From: an uncultured Ardenticatenia bacterium
GTDB taxonomy: Bacteria; Chloroflexota; Anaerolineae; 4572-78; NAK82
Assembly: GCA_937127125.1 (NCBI GenBank)
Contig: CAKZLO010000033.1
Location: 69,217 to 133,216, forward strand
Direction of reading: 5' to 3'
DNA: 64,000 nt
Positions 51,921-63,535 of the stretch are shown here, piece by piece. A model generated the notes under the pieces. That model was not told the DNA's origin, searched no databases, and was given only the letters and a program-made list of their open reading frames with translations. The stretch's first letter is position 1; every line of letters begins with the position of its first letter. The translations under genes and the position numbers were made by a program.

Positions 51921-53294
51921 ATGAGCGAGCCACCGCGAAGCGGACATGAGAGGCAGCCACCAGCTAATGTGGAGGCGGAAGAGGCAGTGCTGGGAGCACT
52001 GCTGATTGACCCGGATGCCATCCTACGCGTGGCAACTTTCCTCCAACCACCTGATTTCTATGTACCGCGCCACCGGGCAATCTTCCAGGCAATCCTCGAT
52101 CTGTATGAGCGCCGTGAGCCAGCTGACCTGGTGACATTGACCGACGAACTCGAGCGACGCGGACAACTGGCATCGGTCGGTGGAGTTGCATATCTCACTG
52201 GTTTGATCAACGCCACACCCACCAGTATCCACGTGGAGTACTATGCTCGCATCGTGGAGCGCACTGCTGTGTTGCGCCGACTGATTCACGCGGCCACTGA
52301 GATAGCCAAGCTCGCATACCAGGATACTGAAGATGTAGACAGCGTTGTGGATCGGGCGGAAAGTCTTATTTTCTCTGTTTCGGAGAAGCGCATCGCGCGC
52401 GATCTGGTGCCCATCCGCCAGGTGCTCGATCAATATTATGACCGCATCGAATACTTGATGCAGCATCAGGGGGAGATGGCAGGCATCCCTACAGGCCTGG
52501 TTGACCTGGACAAATTATTGGGAGGCTTGCAGCGTTCTGATCTGATCATCATTGCCGGACGGCCTGGCATGGGCAAGACCAGCTTGGCCCTTTCCATCGC
52601 ATTACAGGCAGCGCGTCGCTGGCGGAAGCGCATTGCGATTTTCAGCCTGGAGATGAGCAGTGAGCAGGTGGTGCAGCGCCTTATCAGCGCCGAGACAGGC
52701 ATTGATGCCCAGCGTCTGCGTCTGGGGCAGATTCACGAGGATGAGTTCAACGTCTTCGTGGAAGCGACAGGCATACTCTCAGACATCCCGATCTTCATCG
52801 ATGACACGCCAGCCCTCTCGGCGATGGAAATGCGCGCCAAAGCGCGCCGCCTGCACGCCGAACATGGCCTGGACCTGATCATCGTGGATTACTTGCAACT
52901 GATGCGCGGTGAGCTGGGCAGCGATGGGAATCGCGTTCAGGAGATCAGCTTTATCTCGCGTGCTCTCAAGTCACTGGCGCGCGAGCTCAACGTGCCCGTG
53001 GTGGCGCTTAGCCAGCTGTCCCGCGCGGTCGAGTCGCGCCAGGACAAACGTCCCGTGCTCTCCGATCTGCGCGAGAGTGGGAGCATCGAGCAGGACGCCG
53101 ACGTAGTCATCTTTGTCTATCGTGATGTGGAGCACAACCCTGATACGAAGTTCCCCAACTTGGCTGAGATACGCGTGGCCAAACATCGCAGCGGGCCAAC
53201 GGGCATCGTGTCTGCCTATTTCAAGAAGGAGCTGGCGAAGTTCGAGAACGCCGAGGTGCACCGCGAGGTGTTGGGGCAGATGGTGGAAGGATAG
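51921..53294 (+). CDS. dnaB: Replicative DNA helicase DnaB
   Basis: [18 protein letters not shown], Walker [19 protein letters not shown], and SQLSRAVE. No intein. Confidence 0.93.
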
Positions 53295-53302
53295 TCAGGC
53301 GT

Positions 53303-54007
53303 ATGAGCATGCGGTTTGAGGGATTTCCTGCGGGAGAGTTGCAGTACATCACGGTGCCCGATCTGTTTTTCACGGGTTTGGTGCCACTGGTGGATGATCT
53401 GGGCGAATTGAAAGTGATCTTGCATATGATCTGGCTGCGGCAGCGCCGGGGCAAGCAGGTGGTCACAGAAGAGGAACTGAGTACGGATGAAACTCTCATG
53501 GCCGGTCTCAGCGCCCTGGAAGGTGATCCTGCGGAACATCTTCGCGATGCGCTGAGGCGCGCCGTGCAGCGTGGCGCCCTGCTGTGTGAAGTTCTGGAGA
53601 CACCAGATGGGCAGCACAATGTGTACGCCCTGAACAGTGCCGGTGGACGAGATGCGATGGAACGGGTACGCCAAGGGAAGCTGGGCGTGGAGCGAGTCGT
53701 GCTTACGGAGCGTCCTGTAACACGACCGCGCCCCAACATCTTTGAGCTCTACGAAGACAATATCGGTCTCATCTCACCGCTCCTGGCCGATGAGCTGCGT
53801 GAGGCGGAGGCAACGTATCCGGCTGACTGGATCGAGGAGGCATTTCGCATCGCGGTTGAAAACAACGTCCGTAAATGGCGTTATATTCAGGCGATCTTGG
53901 AGGGCTGGGCGACCCGAGGCAAGGATGATCGTTCGGCAGCGCGCCGTGCCGAATCGGAGAAGCGTTGGTATACGGATGAAGAGTTCGAACGGTTCTTCAA
54001 ACATTGA
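53303..54007 (+). CDS. DnaD-domain replication/primosome protein
   Basis: C-terminal region NIFELYEDNIGLISPLLADELREAE...WIEEAFRIAVENNVRKWRYIQAILEGW is a DnaD/DnaB_2 (PF07261)-type pattern. Confidence 0.7.
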   Translation: MSMRFEGFPAGELQYITVPDLFFTGLVPLVDDLGELKVILHMIWLRQRRGKQVVTEEELSTDETLMAGLSALEGDPAEHLRDALRRAVQRGALLCEVLETPDGQHNVYALNSAGGRDAMERVRQGKLGVERVVLTERPVTRPRPNIFELYEDNIGLISPLLADELREAEATYPADWIEEAFRIAVENNVRKWRYIQAILEGWATRGKDDRSAARRAESEKRWYTDEEFERFFKH

Positions 54008-55349
54008 GCGCGAGGTAAAACTTTCGGTGGTCACCAGACACCACCAGACTTGTCCCATTTGCGGAGGAGCAGGGTTCCTGCGCAAGGACGTGCCGGTGGG
54101 GCATCCCGAGTTTGGCAAGGTGGTTGCCTGTGAGTGCCAACGGCCACGCCTGGAAGCAGCGCGACTGAACGATCTGCGCGCGATGAGCAATTTGGAGGCA
54201 ATGAGCCGTTTTACTTTCGAGACCTTCAAGCCTGAGGGTGTCGGGCTCACGGAAGAAAAGCGACATAACCTGCGCAGTGCTTATGAGGCAGCTCGTGCTT
54301 TCGCGGCAAACCCCCAAGGGTGGCTGGTGTTGCTCGGAGGGTATGGCTGTGGGAAAACACACCTGGCAGCTGCGATTGCCAATGAGCAGCTGATTTTGGG
54401 GAGGCCGGTGTTGTTTGTCGTGGTGCCGGATTTGTTGGATCATTTGCGCGCTACTTTCAGCCCTCATAGTACTATCACCTACGATCGACGTTTCGAGAAC
54501 GTGCGTAATGTGACCGTGTTGGTCCTGGACGATCTGGGCACCCAGAGCAGCACTGAGTGGGCGCGGGAGAAGCTCTTCCAGATATTCAACCATCGTTACA
54601 ATCTGCGTCTTCCCACCGTGGTCACCTCCAACTGCAAGCTGGAAAGCATCGACGTCCGCATTCGTTCGCGCCTGATGGATCCTGACCTGGTACGCATTTG
54701 TCATATTACGGCGCCCGATTACCGGAGCAGCGGGAGTGAGATGCTTGGCTATGAGCTCTCGAGCCTGGAGCTGCACAGCGATCAGACATTCGACACGTTC
54801 AGCTTGCGAGAACGTGAGCTCACCCGTGAGCAGGTTGAAAACCTGGAGCAGGTGTTAACCTTCGCGCGGAACTATGCAGCTAACCCCGAGGAATGGCTGG
54901 TGTTGACGGGGGGCTATGGCAGCGGCAAGACCCACTTGGCGGCTGCCATTGCCAACGCGCGCCGTGCGATGGGAGATCACAATGTGCTGTTTGTAGTGGT
55001 CCCGGACTTGTTAGACCATTTGCGCGCCACATATGCGCCGGACAGTCATGTCTCCTACGATACGCGCCTGGAACAGGTACGCAATGCTCCCTTGCTCGTC
55101 TTGGACGACTTGGGCACGCACAGCGCCACGCCGTGGGCGCAAGAGAAGCTCTATCAAATCTTCAACTATCGCTATAATGCTCGTTTGCCCACTGTTATCA
55201 CCATTGCGGACGGGGTCAACGTGGACGAACGGCTCAAAGCGCGCTTGTTTGACGTGCGACATTGCACTATTTTGCGCTTGAACGTGCCCAGCTACCATGG
55301 CCAGACAGCACCCCCAACTGTGTTGCCGCCTCGTCGCAAGCGACGCTAG
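53976..55349 (+). CDS. Helicase-loader-like protein with N-terminal zinc ribbon and two tandem DnaC/DnaI/IstB-type AAA+ modules
   Basis: CPICGGAGF...CECQ, then module 1 (GGYGCGKTH 54336-54359, LVLDDLG, VVTSN). Module 2 lies 573 nt later (GGYGSGKTH 54909-54932, LVLDDLG, VITIA). Start is uncertain (ATG 53976 or GTG 54027). The 5' part of track ORF 53742.. overlaps the DnaD-like gene. Confidence 0.75.
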   Translation: MKSSNGSSNIEREVKLSVVTRHHQTCPICGGAGFLRKDVPVGHPEFGKVVACECQRPRLEAARLNDLRAMSNLEAMSRFTFETFKPEGVGLTEEKRHNLRSAYEAARAFAANPQGWLVLLGGYGCGKTHLAAAIANEQLILGRPVLFVVVPDLLDHLRATFSPHSTITYDRRFENVRNVTVLVLDDLGTQSSTEWAREKLFQIFNHRYNLRLPTVVTSNCKLESIDVRIRSRLMDPDLVRICHITAPDYRSSGSEMLGYELSSLELHSDQTFDTFSLRERELTREQVENLEQVLTFARNYAANPEEWLVLTGGYGSGKTHLAAAIANARRAMGDHNVLFVVVPDLLDHLRATYAPDSHVSYDTRLEQVRNAPLLVLDDLGTHSATPWAQEKLYQIFNYRYNARLPTVITIADGVNVDERLKARLFDVRHCTILRLNVPSYHGQTAPPTVLPPRRKRR

Positions 55350-55491
55350 GCACTTTCTCTGCACCTGAGTGTACGATTCCAGCTATGCCCACGAACATGA
55401 AGGCATCTTGAGTCCGCAATGGTAGAAGCGCATTTCGTCTTGCAGGATGGTCAAATCTGAGCAGAGGCGACACTTCAGCATCTGCGAGGAA

Positions 55492-57234
55492 TTATATCTC
55501 CACTTCAAACAGGAGATCTACCAGCTCGTCTACCAGTCTCGCAAGCAGCTCCCGGTCACCGTCACGGCGTGCTTGCTCAATTTCATCGATCTTGGACTGG
55601 ATTTGATCGGCACGGTCGATCTCCAGGCGGCCATTCTGGAGCAGCCGGCGTGCCCGGTTGAGCATTACCTCTACCTCCCCGGTATCAAACGCGTCCGAAT
55701 CTGACCCTGTCCCCTGTGCAGCCAACAGGGCTGCCATCTGTGCCGTAGCGCGGTTGATCTCCTCCGCGCTCAGGCGTTCTTTAGCAGCCATCACGGTGAT
55801 CGTCTTGCGCTGACCGCTCTTGCGGTCGGTCGCTTGCACTCGTAATTGTCCGTTGACGTCCATGTCGAAGCGCACCGTCACGCGTGCCGGCTCACCTGGC
55901 GTCTCTGGTTGTAGTCCCTCGATGCGAAAGCGACCCAACAGGCGATTGCGCGAAGCGACAGGGTGCTCTCCCTGATACACCACGATCTCGACGGTGTCTT
56001 GGCCGGGATAGACGGTGCGAAAGACCTCTTCGTGAGTGCACGGGATCACTGTGTTGCGCCGAATAATAGGACGGTAGATGTCGGGCACAATGGTGTCACC
56101 CATCTGGGTGGCGATCTCAATGCCCAACGAAAACGGCGTGACATCCACCAACACAGTGCCGATCGGCTGCCCGGCAATGATTGCTGCTTGAACGGCTGCG
56201 CCCAGTGCCACCGCTTCTTCCGGATGGATGGCCATCTGAGGCTCGATGCCGGTGTGCTCGGTCAACATCTGCCACACCAGAGGGATGCGCGTTGAACCGC
56301 CTACCAACAGAATCCGGTCGAGATCGCGCGGCGACAGACCAGCATCCTGGAGCACCCGATCCACCGAGTCCAAAGTTCGCTGCAGCAGATCGCGAATGAG
56401 TGCCTCGAACTCGCGACGTGAGACCTCATACTCCAGGTGCAGTGGCCGCCCGCCACTCTCGGTCAGGAACTCTTCGCGTATCCATGCGAAGGGATGCTCA
56501 GAGAGCTCGATCTTGGCGCGTTCTGCGGCGCGTGTTAGGCGTGCCATGGCGCGGTGGTCACGTCTGAGATCAACGCTGTACCTCTCGGCAAATATGCGTG
56601 CCACGTGCTCTGCCAGGCGCAGGTCGAAGTCATCGCCACCCAGCCAGGTATCCCCATGGCTGGCGCGCACTTCCACCACTCCGGCGACCAGTTCTACTAG
56701 TGAACAGTCGAAAGTGCCACCTCCGAGATCATATACCAGCACCAGCTGATCTTCCGCGCGATTCAGGCCATAGGCCAACGCAGCGGCAGTCGGCTCATTG
56801 ATGATGCGCACCACTTCCAGGCCAGCGATCTCGCCGGCATCCCGTGTCGCCTGACGTTGTGCATCCGAGAAATATGCCGGCACCGTGATCACGGCACGGC
56901 GCACGGTGCATCTCAGGCTCGCTTCGGCAACGGCCTTGATCTCATGCAGGATAAAGGCAGAAATCTGCTGGGGAGTGAATGTATAGCGGCCTATTGTGAT
57001 ACGTTCCGCCGAGCCCATCATCCGCTTGATGGATCGCACCGTGTTCTCCGGCGCAAACACAAACTGATTGCGCGCGGGCATTCCTACCAACCACTTACCC
57101 TGCGGGGACAGTCCTACCACGGAGGGCAGCAGACGCTCTCCACCGCGCGTTAGGAGACGTGGCTGACCATCCTGCACTACGGCAACTGCGGTATATGTGG
57201 TGCCCAGGTCAATACCAACGATCGGGTCATCCAT
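55492..57234 (-). CDS. Short non-canonical Hsp70 family ATPase (580 aa)
   Basis: IVGIDLGTTYT, DLGGGTFD, LLVGGSTRIP, VLVDVTPFSLGIEI. The C-terminus ends LLFEVEI. Confidence 0.9.
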   Translation of the reverse strand: MDDPIVGIDLGTTYTAVAVVQDGQPRLLTRGGERLLPSVVGLSPQGKWLVGMPARNQFVFAPENTVRSIKRMMGSAERITIGRYTFTPQQISAFILHEIKAVAEASLRCTVRRAVITVPAYFSDAQRQATRDAGEIAGLEVVRIINEPTAAALAYGLNRAEDQLVLVYDLGGGTFDCSLVELVAGVVEVRASHGDTWLGGDDFDLRLAEHVARIFAERYSVDLRRDHRAMARLTRAAERAKIELSEHPFAWIREEFLTESGGRPLHLEYEVSRREFEALIRDLLQRTLDSVDRVLQDAGLSPRDLDRILLVGGSTRIPLVWQMLTEHTGIEPQMAIHPEEAVALGAAVQAAIIAGQPIGTVLVDVTPFSLGIEIATQMGDTIVPDIYRPIIRRNTVIPCTHEEVFRTVYPGQDTVEIVVYQGEHPVASRNRLLGRFRIEGLQPETPGEPARVTVRFDMDVNGQLRVQATDRKSGQRKTITVMAAKERLSAEEINRATAQMAALLAAQGTGSDSDAFDTGEVEVMLNRARRLLQNGRLEIDRADQIQSKIDEIEQARRDGDRELLARLVDELVDLLFEVEI

Positions 57235-57263
57235 ACGTCAGTGCTCCTATCCCTTTTGTCACG

Positions 57264-57962
57264 CTATGCTCCTGCTGTGGTGCCGGCTGGCCTTCGCACC
57301 TCCTCAGCCGGTGCCGCAGGCTGTGACTGAAGCGAGGGGACGCGGCGCGAGACAATCACCTCTGAGTAGCGCAGGATGCTATTGCGCGTGCGATAGCCAC
57401 AGCGTTCCTCTGCTACCACGATGCCCTCTGGAGCGCGGCCGCTGCTGTCCACTCCAACCGCAACGTGCAGGTGAGGGTCAAAGGGCTGACCTACTGCCGG
57501 GATAGGCACAACATCTGCCTGGGCCAGTACGTCCATCAGACGCTGGTAAACCAGCCAGAGGCCATCCACCCACGCAGAAAGCATTCGGTGCGCCTCGCCC
57601 TCCTCGGCGAGGCGGTTCAGCTGCTGCTTGGCGCTATTGAGTGTGGCTCCCAGTCCATCAATTACTGGCAGAATCGCCAGTATCAGGTCATGTCGCGCCA
57701 ACTCGATCTCTTTGTGATGGTTACGTTGCAGGAAGGCAATGGTCTCTTCCTGGCGGGTGACAGTTGCGCGCAGGATGTTGATCGCCTCTCGTTGTTGCTC
57801 CAATGTCGACTCTTGCAAGGCATTCGCTTTGAATTGCACCCGAGCCAGGCGGCTTAAATGTTCAACCACCTGAGCAACTTCCGGCATCGCTGCGGCGCCG
57901 CTATTAGTCAGCTGCGCTGCCAGCTGGCTTATCTCTTCCCAGATGAGGCGTTTGTGGCTCAT
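57264..57962 (-). CDS. GrpE-family nucleotide exchange factor
   Basis: Trimmed to ATG 57962 (SD GAGGTGGA, ATGA overlap with the upstream stop). Long coiled coil, then GQPFDPHLHVAVGV...GIVVAEERCGYRTRNSILRYSEVIV. Confidence 0.8.
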   Translation of the reverse strand: MSHKRLIWEEISQLAAQLTNSGAAAMPEVAQVVEHLSRLARVQFKANALQESTLEQQREAINILRATVTRQEETIAFLQRNHHKEIELARHDLILAILPVIDGLGATLNSAKQQLNRLAEEGEAHRMLSAWVDGLWLVYQRLMDVLAQADVVPIPAVGQPFDPHLHVAVGVDSSGRAPEGIVVAEERCGYRTRNSILRYSEVIVSRRVPSLQSQPAAPAEEVRRPAGTTAGA

Positions 57963-58294
57963 AGGTCCACCTCGCAAAAATCTTCACTGAAGTCTTCGCG
58001 CGCCAGATCACTCCACGCACGCAGTACAGCAATAACGTCCTCGGGGTGGAATCTTGTATCCACCCCCGCCTTCATCTTAATGCGTCTGTACGGCCACTCT
58101 TCCGGCTGGCACAGCTGAAACAAGCTGTCCTGCGCTTCTGTGGAAGTCAGCTGTTCATAAGCCGCACGGATCGCTTTGAACGCCTCAGGATCGAGTTCTG
58201 GTGGGTGAGCACGCACCTGCTCGAAGTAAGCTCGCCGCACCTCTTCTGGGGATGCGCCGGGTTGGAGCCCTAACACCCGATAGGGATCGCTCAT
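57959..58294 (-). CDS. J-domain-like protein (111 aa) with HPP in place of HPD
   Basis: DPYRVLGLQPGASPEEVRRAYFEQVRAHPPELDPEAFKAIRAAYEQL. The ATG overlaps the TPR-gene stop (ATGA). The C-terminus ends FCEVDL. Confidence 0.75.
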   Translation of the reverse strand: MSDPYRVLGLQPGASPEEVRRAYFEQVRAHPPELDPEAFKAIRAAYEQLTSTEAQDSLFQLCQPEEWPYRRIKMKAGVDTRFHPEDVIAVLRAWSDLAREDFSEDFCEVDL

Positions 58295-60498
58295 TCTATT
58301 TCCCCCATCCGCAATGCCTCAAGCGCTACCCGCGCCTGTGCCATTGTGGCCGTGTCTCGTTTCTGACGAGCCAGGCGTTCCGCCTGTAGCAAGTGCTTTC
58401 TAGCCCTTTGTCCGGCCTTCGGATCAGACAAGAGGTGAATGCCCAGTAACAGGTGTGCTTCTGCTATGTCGGGCGCCAGTGAGAGTGCCTGTTCCAGACA
58501 CTTCACTGCCGGTCCGAATTGCTTCATCGCGTAGAACGCGCGTGCCAAATCTACCAGCCCTCGCGCATCTGTGGCAGCACGTTGTCGTGCTATCTCCAAC
58601 AGCTGGCTTGCCCACTGGTGATGCCCTGTTTTGGCGCACCATTTCCCCAATTGTAGGTAAAAGCTAAGCGGTGGAGGAGGGTGCACCATTTCGGCGCGCC
58701 GCAGATATTCCCGGGCGGACTCTTCCTTGCCTAAGCTCAGCCATGTGAGAATGAGCCAGTAATACGCTTCCAGGTCCTCCGGATGTTCGGCGAGCACGCG
58801 TTCTGCTTCTTCTTGAGCTCTTATCGTGTCACCCAACAGTCCATAGCAGCGAGCCAAGGAAGCGCGCAGGCGTGTATCCCCAGGCATTTGTTCCAGCCCG
58901 TCGCGATATGCAAGGAGAGCGCGACGCAGATTGCCTTTTTCAAGGTGATAGTCGCCTATCTGGCAGTCCAAACGGGCGATATGCTGGCGCGCCGTGGGAT
59001 GTTCCGGATGGACGGCCAGCACGCGCTGCCACGAATGCAGCGCAGCGTACGGATAGCCCATCTGATCCAGAATCTGAGCTTGCCACGCCAGTGCCTCTTC
59101 ATGCTCGGGATGCTCCATCAGGATTTTCATCACGGCGGAATGGGCAGCACTGTAACGTCCATCCTTGACCATAGCTGCCACCCATTCTAGTTGCAACGTC
59201 ACATCTCCGGGAGCGTATCGGAGGGCATTCCGATACGCACGCACGGCGTCCTCGTAGTTGCCAGCACGGCTGAAACATTGCGCTGCCCGCTGCCACAAAC
59301 GTGCTACCTGCTCATCGGACAGAACGTCGTGTGCCCTAGAAGGAGCTTTGCGAGGTCGAGAACGCACAATTTGTTGCCACAGCTCTGCTGCATGGGCAAA
59401 ATGGCCCAACGCTTCCGCTGCGAGGGCTGCGTTGGTCATCAATGTTCTGCCTCTTTGGCCTGCCTGATAGGCAGCCCAAAGATACTTCCACGCCTTGTCC
59501 CAATCACCTTCCAGCGCGGCACGATAGCCCAAATGCTGTCGCACATGATTCGCGATAAGGTTCAGCTCCTCGATGTCCGGTGCATAGCGCAGTCCCTGCT
59601 CTGCCAATTGCAATGCTTCAGATAGCCCTGAAGCTTTATCCTGGGTTTCCAGAGGGAGGGCTTCATTCGAGTTGAGCAGCGTAATGGCAGACTGCGCACA
59701 CGCCCATGCCAGATTGCGGGTCAGCCATGGGGTTTGCATCCCAACGCCCGTTGCAGCTTGCCAGTGTTCTAGCGCTTCTGTGTAGCGGCCGCGCTTCCAC
59801 GCCAGCACGCCTATGTAGTAGTGCGCTGTGCCGATCGCACAGAGTGGCAAAGTGGCATCTTGCAGAGCGGCAGTTAGAAATGTTTTTGCTTCCGGTCTCT
59901 TAGAGCGTACGGCTGCCAGCCCAGCCCATAACGCATCAGCTCCCTGATGGGAGGCAGGATGCACATTCACCCTCCTTCTTCCACGTAGGAGTGCAAAAGC
60001 TTCCGAGAGGTAACCCTGTTCTTCGGGTGACAGAAATTGCCATACCATGTCCTCCTGTGGGCGGCAGCCTGTCTCCACCAGTGCAACTGCCAGCGGGAAC
60101 GCGGCACGCGCATAAGGAGGCGTCCGTTCCAGCAAAGCTCGGTATAGGGGTATGGCAGATTGCCAGACATTTCGCCGATGGTATGCCAGTGCTAGATGAT
60201 ACTGGTAGCGTGGGTCGTCCGGGGCAAGGCGAAGTGCTTCTACGAGATCATATATCGAGTCTTGGGCAGCGCTGAGCGCACGGCGAAAAAATGCTTCCCC
60301 TGTTGCTCTCTCCAGCCGGTGCCGCAACGCATCATCGTGTGGCAACATCGCGGATGCCCGACGCCAGGCTCGGATTGCTGCAGTGTAATCCCCTTGCGCG
60401 AAAGATGTTTTGCCTTGTTCGATCAGAACTTCAGGCGGCAACGGTTGGACGCTCAGGTATTCATCCATGCACCCGGCGCGCCTTGGGCGTGCATTCAT
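58291..60498 (-). CDS. Large all-TPR repeat protein (735 aa)
   Basis: Repeated 34-aa A/Y/L-rich TPR-like units throughout (for example GDYTAAIRAWRRA, YEDAVRAYRNALRYAPGD, PAVKCLEQALSLAPD). No enzymatic motif seen. Start may be ATG 60498 or ATG 60468. Confidence 0.8.
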   Translation of the reverse strand: MNARPRRAGCMDEYLSVQPLPPEVLIEQGKTSFAQGDYTAAIRAWRRASAMLPHDDALRHRLERATGEAFFRRALSAAQDSIYDLVEALRLAPDDPRYQYHLALAYHRRNVWQSAIPLYRALLERTPPYARAAFPLAVALVETGCRPQEDMVWQFLSPEEQGYLSEAFALLRGRRRVNVHPASHQGADALWAGLAAVRSKRPEAKTFLTAALQDATLPLCAIGTAHYYIGVLAWKRGRYTEALEHWQAATGVGMQTPWLTRNLAWACAQSAITLLNSNEALPLETQDKASGLSEALQLAEQGLRYAPDIEELNLIANHVRQHLGYRAALEGDWDKAWKYLWAAYQAGQRGRTLMTNAALAAEALGHFAHAAELWQQIVRSRPRKAPSRAHDVLSDEQVARLWQRAAQCFSRAGNYEDAVRAYRNALRYAPGDVTLQLEWVAAMVKDGRYSAAHSAVMKILMEHPEHEEALAWQAQILDQMGYPYAALHSWQRVLAVHPEHPTARQHIARLDCQIGDYHLEKGNLRRALLAYRDGLEQMPGDTRLRASLARCYGLLGDTIRAQEEAERVLAEHPEDLEAYYWLILTWLSLGKEESAREYLRRAEMVHPPPPLSFYLQLGKWCAKTGHHQWASQLLEIARQRAATDARGLVDLARAFYAMKQFGPAVKCLEQALSLAPDIAEAHLLLGIHLLSDPKAGQRARKHLLQAERLARQKRDTATMAQARVALEALRMGEIE

Positions 60499-60536
60499 TA
60501 GGAGTGGCTCAACCTCCTGAAAATACCCAGCTTCGC

Positions 60537-61955
60537 TCAGCTGGTCTTTTGGTTATTCTCGGACGTTTGTGCAACGAGCTCGTCTGTTGCTCTTGGCAAT
60601 GCAAAGCTGAACTTGCTGCCCTTGCCCAGCTCCGATTCGGCCCATACGCGACCGCCATAACTTTCTACGGTCCGTTTCACGATCGCCAGGCCCACCCCTG
60701 TGCCGCGTTGTACCATCGCCTTCGCTTGCTCGCCGCGGAAGAATTCCTCGAACAAACGCGGCATGTCTTCGCGCGCGATGCCGATGCCGGTGTCCTCCAC
60801 CGAACCTACCACCTGATCGCCATCGTGGGTCAGGGAGATCGCGATGCGTCCACCTGGCCGATTGTACTTAATAGCATTGCTGATCAGGTTGGTCCAGACA
60901 GAACGCAACTGGTCTTCTGTGGCGAGCACGGGCGGTAGATCGGGAGCAACTTTCACCTCTATAGATAAACCTTTGCTCTCTGCTTCTACCCGTAGTAGCC
61001 CCAATACACTTTCCAACACTTTTTCTGCCCGCACTGGCACACCCTGAGCGGGGCCTTCGATGCGACGTGCTCGTACCAGTTCCAAGAGGTCGCGTATGAG
61101 GTCCAGCAGCTCATACGCACGTGTCTGAGCGCGTTCCAACACCTCGCGTTGCTTTTCCGGCGGGGCGTAGCCGCCCAGGACGAGATTCAGCGCACTGATG
61201 ATAGCACCCATCGGTGCCCGCAGCTCATGCGCGACCATCACGATGAACTGTGTACGGGCAGCATCCAGCTGGCGTAGGCGCTCGTTCATCTCGGTGAGCT
61301 CGCTGCGGTTGATCTCGCATATCTGGCTGGCTTGCAGCAGCTCCTGAGTGCGCCGTCGCAACCGCTCGGCAACCGATGAGGCCATAGCGGCGGCCAGTAG
61401 CAGCGTTAGGGTGACAGCTGTGACGTGTGCAGCTGTATAAACTGGGTTCGCGTAGTGCAAAGGGTCGGCCAGCTGGGGCAAATGGACATGGGGCAACCAG
61501 CCGCTCATTTCAGAAAGAGCCATGCCCGCATACAAGCTCGATGCCAGCAGCGCCACGCCGAAACTGGCCAAACGCGAGAGCAGAATACTGGCTATTATTA
61601 CGTGAAAGAGCAAGAAAACCCCAAAGGGGTTTTCGATTCCTCCGCTAAAGTGCAGCAGAGCTGTCAGAGCGAGCAGATCGAACACAATCTGCACCGCCGC
61701 AAAAATCGGAGAGCGGCGGCGTCGGATGCCTGTACCACGTCGTCGCCACAGATAACGGGCATAGAGCAGAAATAGGAGGTTGTAGAGAGCGATAACCGCT
61801 GTCACGGTTACCAGCGGCAATACGGGCAAGGCTGGCTCCACCAGACGCGCAATGGCAATCCCGGCCAGGGTGCTTACCACTGCTACCCAACGCAGTCGGA
61901 TCAGCCAGCCAATACGCTCTACAAGCTCCAGTTTCAGCGGGTGCAGATCGATCAA
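60537..61955 (-). CDS. Polytopic sensor histidine kinase (6 TM - HisKA - HATPase)
   Basis: The TTG start overlaps the RR stop. H-box MVAHELRAPMGAI, N-box ISNAIKYNRPGG, DTGIGI, GTGVGL. Confidence 0.88.
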   Translation of the reverse strand: MIDLHPLKLELVERIGWLIRLRWVAVVSTLAGIAIARLVEPALPVLPLVTVTAVIALYNLLFLLYARYLWRRRGTGIRRRRSPIFAAVQIVFDLLALTALLHFSGGIENPFGVFLLFHVIIASILLSRLASFGVALLASSLYAGMALSEMSGWLPHVHLPQLADPLHYANPVYTAAHVTAVTLTLLLAAAMASSVAERLRRRTQELLQASQICEINRSELTEMNERLRQLDAARTQFIVMVAHELRAPMGAIISALNLVLGGYAPPEKQREVLERAQTRAYELLDLIRDLLELVRARRIEGPAQGVPVRAEKVLESVLGLLRVEAESKGLSIEVKVAPDLPPVLATEDQLRSVWTNLISNAIKYNRPGGRIAISLTHDGDQVVGSVEDTGIGIAREDMPRLFEEFFRGEQAKAMVQRGTGVGLAIVKRTVESYGGRVWAESELGKGSKFSFALPRATDELVAQTSENNQKTS

Positions 61956-62344
61956 CTCTTCGTGCCGACAATCTCATTGGCAATGCGCAATACCTCTGCC
62001 ATTGGTACCGGTTTGGTCAGAAATTGATCAACTGACAGAGGCTTATCGGTTGGAAAATGTCCAATGTACTCGGTGTCCATGATAGAAGTGAGCATGATGA
62101 TCGGGATATCCCACAACTCGGGATCTTCCTTAATTGTCGCTGTCACGTCAACACCCTCGGTGGGGTGTGCCATTACCACGTCTAAAAAGACCAGGTCAGG
62201 CTTCTCGCGTCGCATGGTCTCCAAACCGAGCCTGCCGCTGGCAGCGGTCAGCACCTCAAAGCCATCACTCTCCAGCCCGATCCGCATAAACTCACAAAAG
62301 TCGGGATCATCATCAATAATCAGCACTTTGCCCTTGGATGCCAT
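61952..62344 (-). CDS. Single-domain (CheY-like) response regulator
   Basis: Trimmed to ATG 62344 (SD AAGGAGGA). VLIIDDD...DLVFLDVVM...LTKP. No output domain. Confidence 0.88.
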   Translation of the reverse strand: MASKGKVLIIDDDPDFCEFMRIGLESDGFEVLTAASGRLGLETMRREKPDLVFLDVVMAHPTEGVDVTATIKEDPELWDIPIIMLTSIMDTEYIGHFPTDKPLSVDQFLTKPVPMAEVLRIANEIVGTKS

Positions 62345-62397
62345 CGGGGGTCCTCCTTGCATTGTAGCCTGCTGAAATGTACATCAGACCTATGTCA

Positions 62398-62425
62398 ATT
62401 ATAACGTGCCCGATGGGGGTGTCAA
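62398..62425 (-). promoter_or_regulatory. Consensus sigma70 promoter of the RR-HK-TPR-J-GrpE-Hsp70 operon
   Basis: On the minus strand: TTGACA (62425-62420), 16-nt spacer, TATAAT (62403-62398). It lies ~55 nt upstream of the RR ATG. Confidence 0.65.
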
Positions 62426-62542
62426 ATGCATTTCAGAAGAGCACGTTCTCTCCCGCTCTCATGGTCGCGTAATCGCATTCCCCTTCGGGCATCTGATCGT
62501 ATGAGAACGTCGCACAATGGAGATCTCAGCCGTTCAATACTC

Positions 62543-63535
62543 TTATGCGCCTTCGAGTGCAGGCAACACGCGCATGGGCCACTTGCCCTGCTTACTGCGC
62601 AGATAAGCCGCCCGCCGCGCGCCATAGGTGGGATCAATTTGGGACAGCGGCAACAATTGACCGTCCCGCAGTACATGAGGATCCACAGTGCGCAGCTTGG
62701 TGCTCACGTGGAAGGTAGGATGATCATCGTCCCATATGAAGCGCGTTTTGGGGGAGATCAGCGCCAGCAATTCCTGCAAATGGGCATCCGGACAGAGGTG
62801 CAGCTTGTGCCAGACCTGTGCATCCGTGCTCCACAGATCACTCTGGCTGATGGCACCCAGTTCCAGTCCGCGTCGGATTGCCTGTGCGCACAGTTCATAA
62901 AGCCCCACCTCACGAAAGCTCGACCAGCTGGCATGGTCAGCAGCTATATAGGTATCGGCAATCCAACGCGCTGTCGCTTCATCGGCAACGGCAATGTATC
63001 CCTTGCAGACCACCAATCCCTCCAGGACACGCTGGATGTCTTCCTGACGGGCCAGGCCCAGATCGAGGCTGTCACGCAGGAAGTAGTCCAGACGGTCAGC
63101 GCATAGGGCGGGCGCCGGTTGTTCCAGCAAGGAGAATTGGTCCTCGTCCAGTAGCTCTCGCCAATCGTATCCATAGCGTGCCAGCAGAGCCGGCAGGTCG
63201 CTGTGCTCTACATATTTCTCCTTCATCGTTTCGTGGTAACACTGGCTGTCGTGCCCGCCGTAAACATAGTCGATTACATGGCTGAAGGCAGTATGGCTGA
63301 CGTCGTGCAACAGGGCAGCCAGCTGTTCCTGCAGTGAAGCGCCCAGACGACGCACCAGCAGCATGACCCCCACGCTATGTTCGAAGCGCGTTGTCGCACG
63401 GGTTATCCCTACCAGGCCACTGATGCCGTGTTGCAACACACCGTGTAACCTTTGCACTGCACGCGTGTGCAGCACATCCAGCAACACGGGCTCGTCGATC
63501 TCAACATGTCCGTAGATGCGATCGTGGTAGTGCAA
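62543..63535 (-). CDS. HD-domain metal-dependent phosphohydrolase (COG1078/SAMHD1-type HD pattern)
   Basis: FEHSVGVMLLV...AALLHDVSHTAFSHVIDYV...CADRLDYFLRD. Confidence 0.8.
   Translation of the reverse strand: MHYHDRIYGHVEIDEPVLLDVLHTRAVQRLHGVLQHGISGLVGITRATTRFEHSVGVMLLVRRLGASLQEQLAALLHDVSHTAFSHVIDYVYGGHDSQCYHETMKEKYVEHSDLPALLARYGYDWRELLDEDQFSLLEQPAPALCADRLDYFLRDSLDLGLARQEDIQRVLEGLVVCKGYIAVADEATARWIADTYIAADHASWSSFREVGLYELCAQAIRRGLELGAISQSDLWSTDAQVWHKLHLCPDAHLQELLALISPKTRFIWDDDHPTFHVSTKLRTVDPHVLRDGQLLPLSQIDPTYGARRAAYLRSKQGKWPMRVLPALEGA

Follow-up and report, generated by a model that had tools for sequence, protein, structure and literature searches.

HscC-type Hsp70s have been called the 'dark matter' of the bacterial chaperone network, and knowledge of them comes mainly from E. 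coli, whose HscC has no GrpE and no clear client. According to Mayer 2021 (PMC8215388, after Kluck et al. 2002), HscC is recognised by several hallmarks: it is 550-580 amino acids (aa) long, has 4-8 extra residues in loop L1,2 of the substrate-binding domain (SBD), ends in an acidic/aliphatic tail and cooperates exclusively with the J-domain proteins DjlC and DjlB, while the segment corresponding to DnaK residues 76-101 and the GrpE-signature loop are lost and helix B is shorter by nine residues. The same source describes HscC tails as negatively charged and aliphatic, and states that the GrpE-signature loop is missing from E. coli HscC, which is believed to work without GrpE (PMC8215388). In the literature, HPE is given as the sole tolerated variant of the HPD motif of J domains, and as a mark of the HscC partners DjlB and DjlC. 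Other described systems combine similar parts. J domains joined to tetratricopeptide repeats (TPR) form the class-C 'DnaJ-TPR' architecture class of Malinverni et al. 2023 (PMC10410713), and cyanobacterial DnaK1, the TPR-J protein DnaJ3 and GrpE are found at the motor of type IV pili (McDonald et al. 2022, PMC9239167). In those cyanobacteria GrpE is the only one in the cell, dnaJ3 is encoded elsewhere, and the locus is often next to pilBTC (PMC9239167). In Myxococcus xanthus, the GrpS-SglK pair (MXAN_6672-MXAN_6671, MxDnaK2) consists of a second GrpE encoded upstream of, and co-transcribed with, a non-essential Hsp70 paralogue. Here we analyse a 64,000-nucleotide (nt) stretch from the genome of an uncultured Ardenticatenia bacterium (contig CAKZLO010000033.1; the whole stretch is called the window), which carries on its minus strand four adjoining genes for a TPR protein, a J-protein, a GrpE and an Hsp70 that appears to be of the HscC type.

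The J-protein is the most specific marker of this locus and was used to find related loci. A protein search yielded 18 relatives, mostly in Anaerolineae metagenome-assembled genomes (MAGs), and a scan of one genome per species (185,579 species genomes) yielded 364 stretches encoding a J-protein relative, a number that is an upper bound, as the search patterns match related J types too. The best 80 of these 364 loci are almost all from Chloroflexota (Anaerolineae, Thermoflexales, Caldilineaceae, Chloroflexales/Chloroflexaceae and Viridilinea), the others being two Chthonomonadales, one Latescibacterota MAG and one record labelled 'uncultured bacterium'. For 82 non-redundant loci, six proteins encoded by the window were compared by tblastn and all flanking open reading frames (ORFs) were clustered. 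The order TPR, J, GrpE, Hsp70 and the strand are constant wherever the contig permits: the J gene is found in all 82 loci, GrpE in 80, the TPR gene upstream of J in 80, and Hsp70 in 76. The junctions are kept as well, with the 4-nt overlap between J and GrpE seen in 57/80 loci, and an overlap or a gap of at most 20 nt between TPR and J in 43/62. Clustering of the flanking ORFs gave no fifth conserved gene and no nearby client gene; rmlD-like, GT2 and ABC-transporter genes recur in the flanks, within subclades only, and relatives of the J-protein at 40-55% identity are accompanied by the four chaperone genes only, in varied surroundings. Since order, strand and junctions are kept across loci with no further shared gene, the conserved unit comprises four genes, and the functional unit is the four-gene cassette TPR-J-GrpE-Hsp70. 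An earlier preliminary description of this DNA had raised the conservation across relatives of both a four-gene and a six-gene block; the former is indeed kept in order, and the latter is confined to the closest clade. We found no description of a TPR-J-GrpE-Hsp70 cassette in the literature searched.

The Hsp70 gene (55492..57234, minus strand, 29-nt gap after the GrpE gene; Pfam HSP70 5e-162) encodes 580 aa with intact nucleotide-binding domain (NBD), linker, SBD-beta and lid. The protein scores below the NCBIfam equivalog cut-offs for DnaK, at 575.1 vs 648 (NF001413) and 568.4 vs 822.55 (TIGR02350), and its orthologues, mostly 565-601 aa long, are named 'Hsp70 family protein' at NCBI. DnaK is about 640 aa long; a length of 580 aa lies in the HscC range of 550-580. 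Alignments to DnaK and HscC place an 8-residue insertion, relative to E. coli and G. kaustophilus DnaK, in the SBD-beta loop L1,2 (…GIEIATQMGDTIVPDIYRPII…, 56080..56112). This insertion is present in all family members and in every Hsp70 linked to an HPPE-type J domain; the one in E. coli HscC, at the corresponding position, is shorter. The protein has an acidic/aliphatic C-terminal end, LLFEVEI (55495..55515), which corresponds to the family consensus LLDLL[FY][DE]LE[ED], a motif seen in 64/70 loci. Aligned with E. coli DnaK, HscA and HscC, the family also shows changed arch residues, with M404 replaced by V/I and A429 by L/I/V/M. In neighbour-joining (NJ) trees the family is sister to E. coli HscC in 93/100 replicates (455 columns), and with metagenomic relatives added (409 columns) the HscC-inclusive clade excludes the DnaKs in 60/60. 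On the basis of these hallmark features and the tree placement, the Hsp70 is best classed as a member of the HscC type, or HscC superfamily, rather than as a variant of DnaK. The NBD lobe-I segment (DnaK 76-101) is a 24-residue gap in the Hsp70; we rejected this gap as an HscC-specific mark, as the Gram-positive-type form of DnaK lacks the segment too. The preliminary description had called the C-terminus short and atypical, and while it is short, it is not atypical, having normal HscC-type length and a conserved acidic/aliphatic end.

Residues for J-protein binding and allostery are kept in the Hsp70 (R167, N170, T173, E206, E217, V218, D326, Q378, D393, N415 and P419, with Arg for K414). At the lower salt bridge, R56 is always Asn and E264 is mostly Arg, E267 being kept; because of the first two changes the bridge is lost. 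The retention of the J-site and allosteric residues, together with that of the GrpE-signature loop, makes a working Hsp70 cycle plausible.

The J gene (57959..58294, minus strand) overlaps the TPR gene by ATGA and encodes a protein of 111 aa that matches Pfam DnaJ (3e-08, 33.9 bits vs a cut-off of 27.8). The J domain comprises residues 1-57 and is followed by a conserved C-terminal half. Alignment places HPPE (His30-Pro31-Pro32-Glu33, 58196..58207) at the HPD site, so the label 'J-like' given previously is accurate. HPPE is found in 16/18 aligned sequences, the other two reading YPPE and, in a sequence from Gemmataceae, FTPE; P32 and E33 are invariant in this alignment and P31 nearly so. By profile alignment the P-P-E falls on the H-P-D positions of solved J domains, so that the His is displaced by one residue and Glu takes the place of Asp. 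No gaps are needed to align the protein with E. coli DjlC (E 4e-8) and DjlB (hhalign 95%), with which it shares the pattern 'PE.DP..FK..R.AYE'; alignment to DnaJ is weaker and does need gaps. To judge from these alignments the J domain is of the DjlB/DjlC (HPE) type, in an HPPE variant. The preliminary description had named HscC/DjlC as a loose precedent for this locus, which is relevant and understated, given an apparently HscC-type Hsp70 and a DjlB/DjlC-type J domain. AlphaFold2 (AF2) models the J domain at a predicted local distance difference test (pLDDT) score of ~90 and the C-terminal half at 50-70, a low order that is expected for a region that folds on a partner. The protein ends in [VI]xL-COOH in 61/82 loci, and searches of the C-terminal half against DjlB/DjlC and solved structures showed no similarity, the J domain alone giving matches. 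Among the proteins matching the J family is one of 679 aa (P0192) with six tandem J domains (Pfam DnaJ, 6 stretches, 397 bits).

The GrpE gene (57264..57962, minus strand; Pfam GrpE 2.7e-22) encodes 232 aa from an ATG at 57962 that overlaps the J gene as ATGA, with GAGGTGGA upstream of the start. Its best NCBIfam equivalog score is 70.9 vs a cut-off of 184, and it falls below every GrpE cut-off. The J-protein lacks the G/F region, zinc finger and C-terminal domains of DnaJ, scoring 21 bits vs a cut-off of 377 for TIGR02349. The idea that this is a dedicated, non-housekeeping Hsp70 therefore stands, as Hsp70 and GrpE lie below all DnaK and GrpE equivalog cut-offs and the operon has neither a full-length DnaJ nor an HPD. 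The cassette encodes the parts of a self-contained Hsp70 cycle, which probably operates alongside the housekeeping DnaK system.

The TPR gene (58291..60498, minus strand) encodes a 735-aa all-helical solenoid matching many TPR families of Pfam. The AF2 model has a pLDDT of 91.5 and 38 helices, which amounts to ~19 hairpins. Its orthologue family holds 49 full-length clusters of 720-800 aa, after which there is a sharp fall to generic TPR matches. No match to PF00226 was found in the TPR orthologues, and two distinct genes encode TPR and J, both in the window and in each of the 80 genome loci. The TPR protein shows no similarity to the non-J part of DjlC (hhalign probability 0.3). A link between the two proteins comes from elsewhere: a search of 1.84 billion representative proteins with a J-family profile gave 941 matches at E<=1e-10, and among 10 long matches that were checked, 8 have the same J type fused to TPR repeats, 4/8 with exactly HPPE. 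Such J-TPR gene fusions are 'Rosetta-stone' evidence that TPR and J work together, and this argues that the two proteins of the cassette may act as a split TPR-J co-chaperone. The place given to the TPR protein in the chaperone machine by the preliminary description is thereby strengthened, since its gene lies upstream of J in 80/82 loci and the same J type is fused to TPR elsewhere. Several fusions carry a C-terminal membrane anchor or SEC-C motif. P0297 and P0266 end in a SEC-C zinc motif, P0328 in a PT-HINT/intein-like domain, and P0274, P0277 and P0292 in a hydrophobic tail-anchor, a hint that the roles of those branches may be tied to membranes or secretion.

A metagenome scan seeded with the fusions brought out three layouts. 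Type A is the cassette of the window. In type B an HscC-like Hsp70 is followed by a J-TPR fusion, and at least 6 such loci have a GrpE-like gene upstream, giving for example GrpE - Hsp70 - (J-TPR) in L109. In type C, represented by L158, J, GrpE and Hsp70 come after a protein of 833 aa that matches no Pfam family and is only weakly similar to TPR proteins. In the NJ tree E. coli HscC nests in type B, and types A and C form a clade of their own. The occurrence of GrpE-like genes beside HscC-like Hsp70s is at odds with the general view that GrpE is not used by HscCs. These genes lie directly upstream of HscC-like Hsp70s that precede J-TPR fusions in L103, L105, L106, L109, L114 and L138; the Hsp70 of L105 lacks the GrpE-signature loop, yet a GrpE-like gene adjoins it. 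The type C locus L158 (5475..10852) encodes an HPPE J-protein of 103 aa and has an M16/PreP-like peptidase gene just upstream; sister cassettes of this layout are also seen in L120, L159, L164, L167, L169 and L172.

Overall, we consider it more likely than not that the four-gene cassette encodes a private HscC-type Hsp70 cycle with a split J-TPR co-chaperone. The 735-aa TPR solenoid and the 111-aa J-protein would form this split 'J-TPR' class-C co-chaperone, in which the TPR scaffold would hold clients or the site of action, and the J-protein would dock on it through its conserved C-terminal half, which is predicted to be poorly ordered alone. The HPPE J domain would trigger ATP hydrolysis solely in its cognate Hsp70, to which the wider L1,2 loop and the bulkier arch may give a different peptide preference, and the private GrpE would reset the Hsp70 cycle. 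Separation of this cycle from DnaK/DnaJ/GrpE could then come from the deviant J motif, the divergence of the GrpE and the NBD of HscC type. A more detailed version, to which we give only tentative credence, combines a second, separate cycle of an HscC-type Hsp70 with an HPPE J-protein, reset by GrpE, with a scaffold of ~19 repeats that would bind the tail of the mini-J protein, and with wiring to a receiver protein and a PilS-like kinase in one clade.

Several observations weigh against the proposal of a private HscC-type cycle. The GrpE-signature loop is present in the Hsp70 of the window and in the family members shown, and is deleted in E. coli HscC and HscA. The gap in helix B is 2-5 residues vs about 9-11 in E. 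coli HscC, in a lid that aligns poorly. The references of the NJ trees were E. coli DnaK, HscA and HscC with one Gram-positive DnaK, and included no canonical Chloroflexota DnaK; long-branch attraction to HscC may lie behind the grouping. The J-protein could regulate rather than activate the Hsp70, given its shifted His and the change of Asp to Glu. The TPRs of the fusions match residues 414-608 of the TPR protein (profile, 97%), but this match is not specific. Finally, the flanking genes of the 82 loci give no consistent hint to clients.

An unlikely but not negligible alternative is that the TPR protein is a co-chaperone of the Hop/CHIP kind that clamps the conserved acidic end of the Hsp70 C-terminus, or else that it is the principal client, being a large solenoid that would require the Hsp70 for its assembly. 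Besides the conserved C-terminal motif of the Hsp70, this alternative is favoured by the acidic/aromatic tail (e.g. DDDDDEYW, DEEDFFR) of 42/64 TPR orthologues, which has a similar composition and could compete for one groove. Both tails depart from the family consensus in the clade of the window, which also bears the response regulator and histidine kinase genes discussed below: the C-terminus of the TPR protein (58291..58330) has no such tail, and the last residue of the Hsp70 is hydrophobic, not acidic. The TPR protein also has a conserved basic loop, RxRPRK. However, the J-TPR fusions point to a partnership between J and TPR, and an acidic/hydrophobic motif is found on canonical DnaK tails too, so it is no special evidence for TPR binding. 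A Foldseek search against the PDB returned generic long TPR scaffolds only (Ctr9, TTC7B, OGT, Ski3; template modelling scores 0.2-0.3), with neither Hop nor CHIP among the 50 matches listed.

Upstream of the cassette, and on the same strand, lie genes for a receiver-only response regulator (RR; 61952..62344, 130 aa, Pfam Response_reg 4.5e-19), whose ATG is preceded by AAGGAGGA, and a sensor histidine kinase (HK; 60537..61955, 472 aa, Pfam 6TM_PilS 4.8e-10, HisKA 8e-12, HATPase_c 2e-29), whose TTG start overlaps the RR stop as TTGA. With a HisKA and HATPase_c kinase plus a receiver domain, this is a two-component pair, and the receiver Asp and the H-box His of the HK are readable in the translations. 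The ORF reading gives six minus-strand ORFs with little intergenic space, packed as previously claimed, and all ORFs, overlaps, gaps and Pfam assignments were borne out. Scans for promoters and Rfam families covered 55000..63000. A sigma-70-type promoter, TTGACA-16-TATAAT (62398..62425, minus strand), lies upstream of the RR gene and is the sole 12/12 match in that range, in agreement with the earlier statement that the only good promoter is found there; the Rfam scan gave no match. The 38-nt gap between the HK and TPR genes coincides in part with a weak terminator-like hairpin (60527..60544, minus strand) that has a 6-bp stem and a weak T-run; in the four closest relatives L001, L007, L008 and L010 both of these elements fail to be conserved. 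This hairpin is probably non-functional, and we rejected it as an attenuator for its lack of conservation. After the Hsp70 gene there is no convincing terminator, and the fold of the sequence is no better than that of shuffled sequence. In the clade of the window, the cassette is probably co-transcribed with RR and HK from the one strong promoter.

The preliminary description took all six genes as one signal-controlled system. On such a model the PilS-like kinase and the RR would sense a membrane signal and control the chaperones, which we judge improbable. The genes do share a strand, with gaps of at most 38 nt and one perfect promoter in the window; read-through at the HK/TPR junction is likely because the hairpin is weak and unconserved; and the six-gene arrangement is kept in L001, L007, L008, L010 and L148. 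A single-domain RR must work through protein contacts, and the TPR scaffold could conceivably be its target. However, RR and HK adjoin the cassette only in L001/L002, L007, L008 and L010, plus L148 from a metagenome, and ~75 more distant loci have no RR/HK next to the cassette. The loci that share them are close relatives, with J-proteins 65-73% and RR/HK ~87-92% identical to those of the window, and in these loci synteny extends to the unrelated dnaC/dnaD/dnaB genes. By Pfam, the RR lacks an output (DNA-binding) domain, and therefore cannot itself control transcription of the operon. The adjacency is thus limited to the closest clade, with its general synteny, and neither a six-gene functional unit nor signal control is supported. 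RR and HK are a lineage-specific neighbour, a local arrangement that is not part of the chaperone system.

Somewhat less probable still is a reading of the cassette as the Chloroflexota counterpart of the motility or polysaccharide chaperones, i.e. DnaK1 with DnaJ3 and GrpE, or SglK with GrpS. Chloroflexota are filamentous gliders, the adjacent kinase has a PilS-like 6-TM domain, and the published systems pair a DnaK paralogue with GrpE and a TPR-J protein or form a grpS-sglK bicistron. One subclade also has rmlD-like and GT2 genes ~3.5 kb downstream. These points are outweighed by the lack of pil or conserved polysaccharide genes in the flanks of the 82 loci, by the lineage-specific occurrence of the PilS-like kinase, and by the fact that GrpE in cyanobacteria is the single housekeeping one, with dnaJ3 unlinked.

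It is highly improbable that the cassette is no more than a divergent phylum's housekeeping grpE-dnaK-dnaJ set. In favour of this reading, the Hsp70 is complete, its closest solved relative is G. kaustophilus DnaK and its best NCBIfam match is also a DnaK, and no other Hsp70 was found in the window. Against this stand the missed DnaK and GrpE equivalog cut-offs, a J-protein of 111 aa with no HPD and none of the class-A DnaJ regions, and the HscC hallmarks and NJ grouping with HscC. A search of the window with E. coli DnaJ gave nothing beyond the J-protein. No CIRCE operator was found in the window or upstream of the TPR genes (0/71), and no convincing HAIR site, nor any shared upstream 8-mer, upstream of 71 cassettes, although such operators are not universal among housekeeping sets. 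Relatives of the J-protein occur in at most 364/185,579 species genomes, and several dnaK copies are common in Chloroflexi, whose rate of dnaK paralogues is reported as the highest.

An anti-phage or conflict system around the Hsp70, like GTPase-, McrBC- or STAND-linked modules, is just as hard to credit and was rejected: GAP1-N2 GTPase conflict systems in Actinobacteria and Firmicutes are known to include Hsp70, GrpE and proteins fused to DnaJ or TPR, and Hsp70-like domains occur in CoCoNuT systems, but published Hsp70 conflict systems have other cores, PADLOC was uninformative with marginal or generic-domain matches only (the best from the kinase ATPase domain to PDC-M43B), the cassette contains no GTPase, nuclease, protease, other effector or variable effector slot, its ATPase and allostery residues are intact, unlike those of the degenerate CnuD Hsp70s, and it is found in many Chloroflexota lineages.

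The surroundings of the cassette offered some further observations. In the window, an HD-domain gene lies upstream of the six-gene run, and a dnaB / dnaD-like / dnaC-like set lies downstream, convergent with the Hsp70 gene. This set comprises dnaB (51921..53294), a DnaB_2/DnaD-like gene (53303..54007) and a DnaC/IstB-like helicase-loader gene (53742..55349), on the plus strand. The last encodes two tandem AAA+ modules with two GKTHLAAAIAN Walker-A sites and two IstB_IS21 stretches, and the same double IstB_IS21 match is seen in the 439-aa DnaC/IstB-like orthologue of L001. Elsewhere, an rmlD-like dTDP-4-dehydrorhamnose reductase gene was seen in 10 loci and a GT2 glycosyltransferase gene in 6, all in one subclade and ~3.4-3.9 kb downstream of J (L012, L018, L039, L056, L057, L070, L071, L073, L076 and L083), these names coming from reading the sequences and not from a domain search. 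Their recurrence may reflect nothing beyond synteny, or else a weak connection with the making of envelope polysaccharides. In L082 (Chloroflexaceae) a second GrpE-like gene on the same strand lies just upstream of the TPR gene, ~3.4 kb upstream of J, with 35% identity over 195 aa. The 2387-bp locus L090, from a Gemmataceae MAG (Planctomycetota), encodes a TPR protein and then a 97-aa J-protein reading FTPE, followed by an overlapping ORF without a GrpE match on a truncated contig, and represents a divergent form of the module.

With four coupled genes in at least 80 species-level genomes, the cassette is a compact experimental system. An HscC branch that retains GrpE dependence would let the statement that HscC does not use GrpE be tested in general, and the cassette offers natural experiments on the J catalytic motif (HPPE vs HPD or HPE) and on the means by which one cell keeps two Hsp70 cycles apart. 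The existence of split and fused J/TPR pairs predicts a specific, directly testable protein-protein interaction. If the proposal of a private HscC-type cycle is true, an HscC-type cycle reset by GrpE would contradict the current view of HscCs, and the cassette would be a prokaryotic counterpart of eukaryotic TPR-Hsp70 networks.

Compared with the systems described to date, the cassette resembles GrpS-SglK in gene layout, having its own GrpE directly upstream of an Hsp70 paralogue. In M. xanthus, unlike in the cassette, no J-protein lies beside either dnaK, and no adjacent TPR partner is reported. It can be likened to the cyanobacterial DnaK1/DnaJ3/GrpE system by composition, as both combine a specialised DnaK paralogue, TPR-J and GrpE, in cyanobacteria for one particular task in the cell instead of folding in general; unlike in that system, the parts of the cassette are all private and in one cluster, and no pil genes recur in the 82 loci. 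With class-C DnaJ-TPR proteins, of which DNAJC3 and DNAJC7 are eukaryotic examples, the cassette shares the bringing together of a J domain and a TPR array, and its nearest long J relatives are HPPE/HxPE J-TPR fusions beside HscC-like Hsp70s. It differs in that J and TPR are separate polypeptides with the TPR gene first, the J domain of the fusions being N-terminal, and in that its TPR protein is much longer (~19 hairpins) and has neither the membrane anchor nor the SEC-C motif of many fusions.

The closest known relative is the E. coli HscC-DjlB/DjlC system. The cassette Hsp70 is like E. coli HscC in its length, L1,2 insertion, lobe-I loss, acidic/aliphatic tail, bulkier arch and grouping in the tree, and the J-protein is like DjlB/DjlC in having Glu for the HPD Asp, in its short 'PE.DP..FK..R.AYE' loop, and in aligning without gaps. 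The E. coli hscC locus, too, holds TPR-like Sel1-repeat genes (ybeQ, ybeT) beside djlB, djlC and hscC. In K-12 (L088, 676000..688000) the order is ybeQ(Sel1)-ybeR(DUF1266)-djlB-ybeT(Sel1)-ybeU(DUF1266)-djlC-hscC, and the reviews searched contain no discussion of this co-location of Sel1 and HscC. DjlB and DjlC each have a tail anchor, a length of ~480 aa and HPE, whereas the cassette has a soluble J-protein of 111 aa with HPPE and a separate 735-aa TPR protein. Finally, unlike E. coli HscC, which has no linked GrpE, the cassette Hsp70 keeps the GrpE loop and has a private, translationally coupled GrpE.

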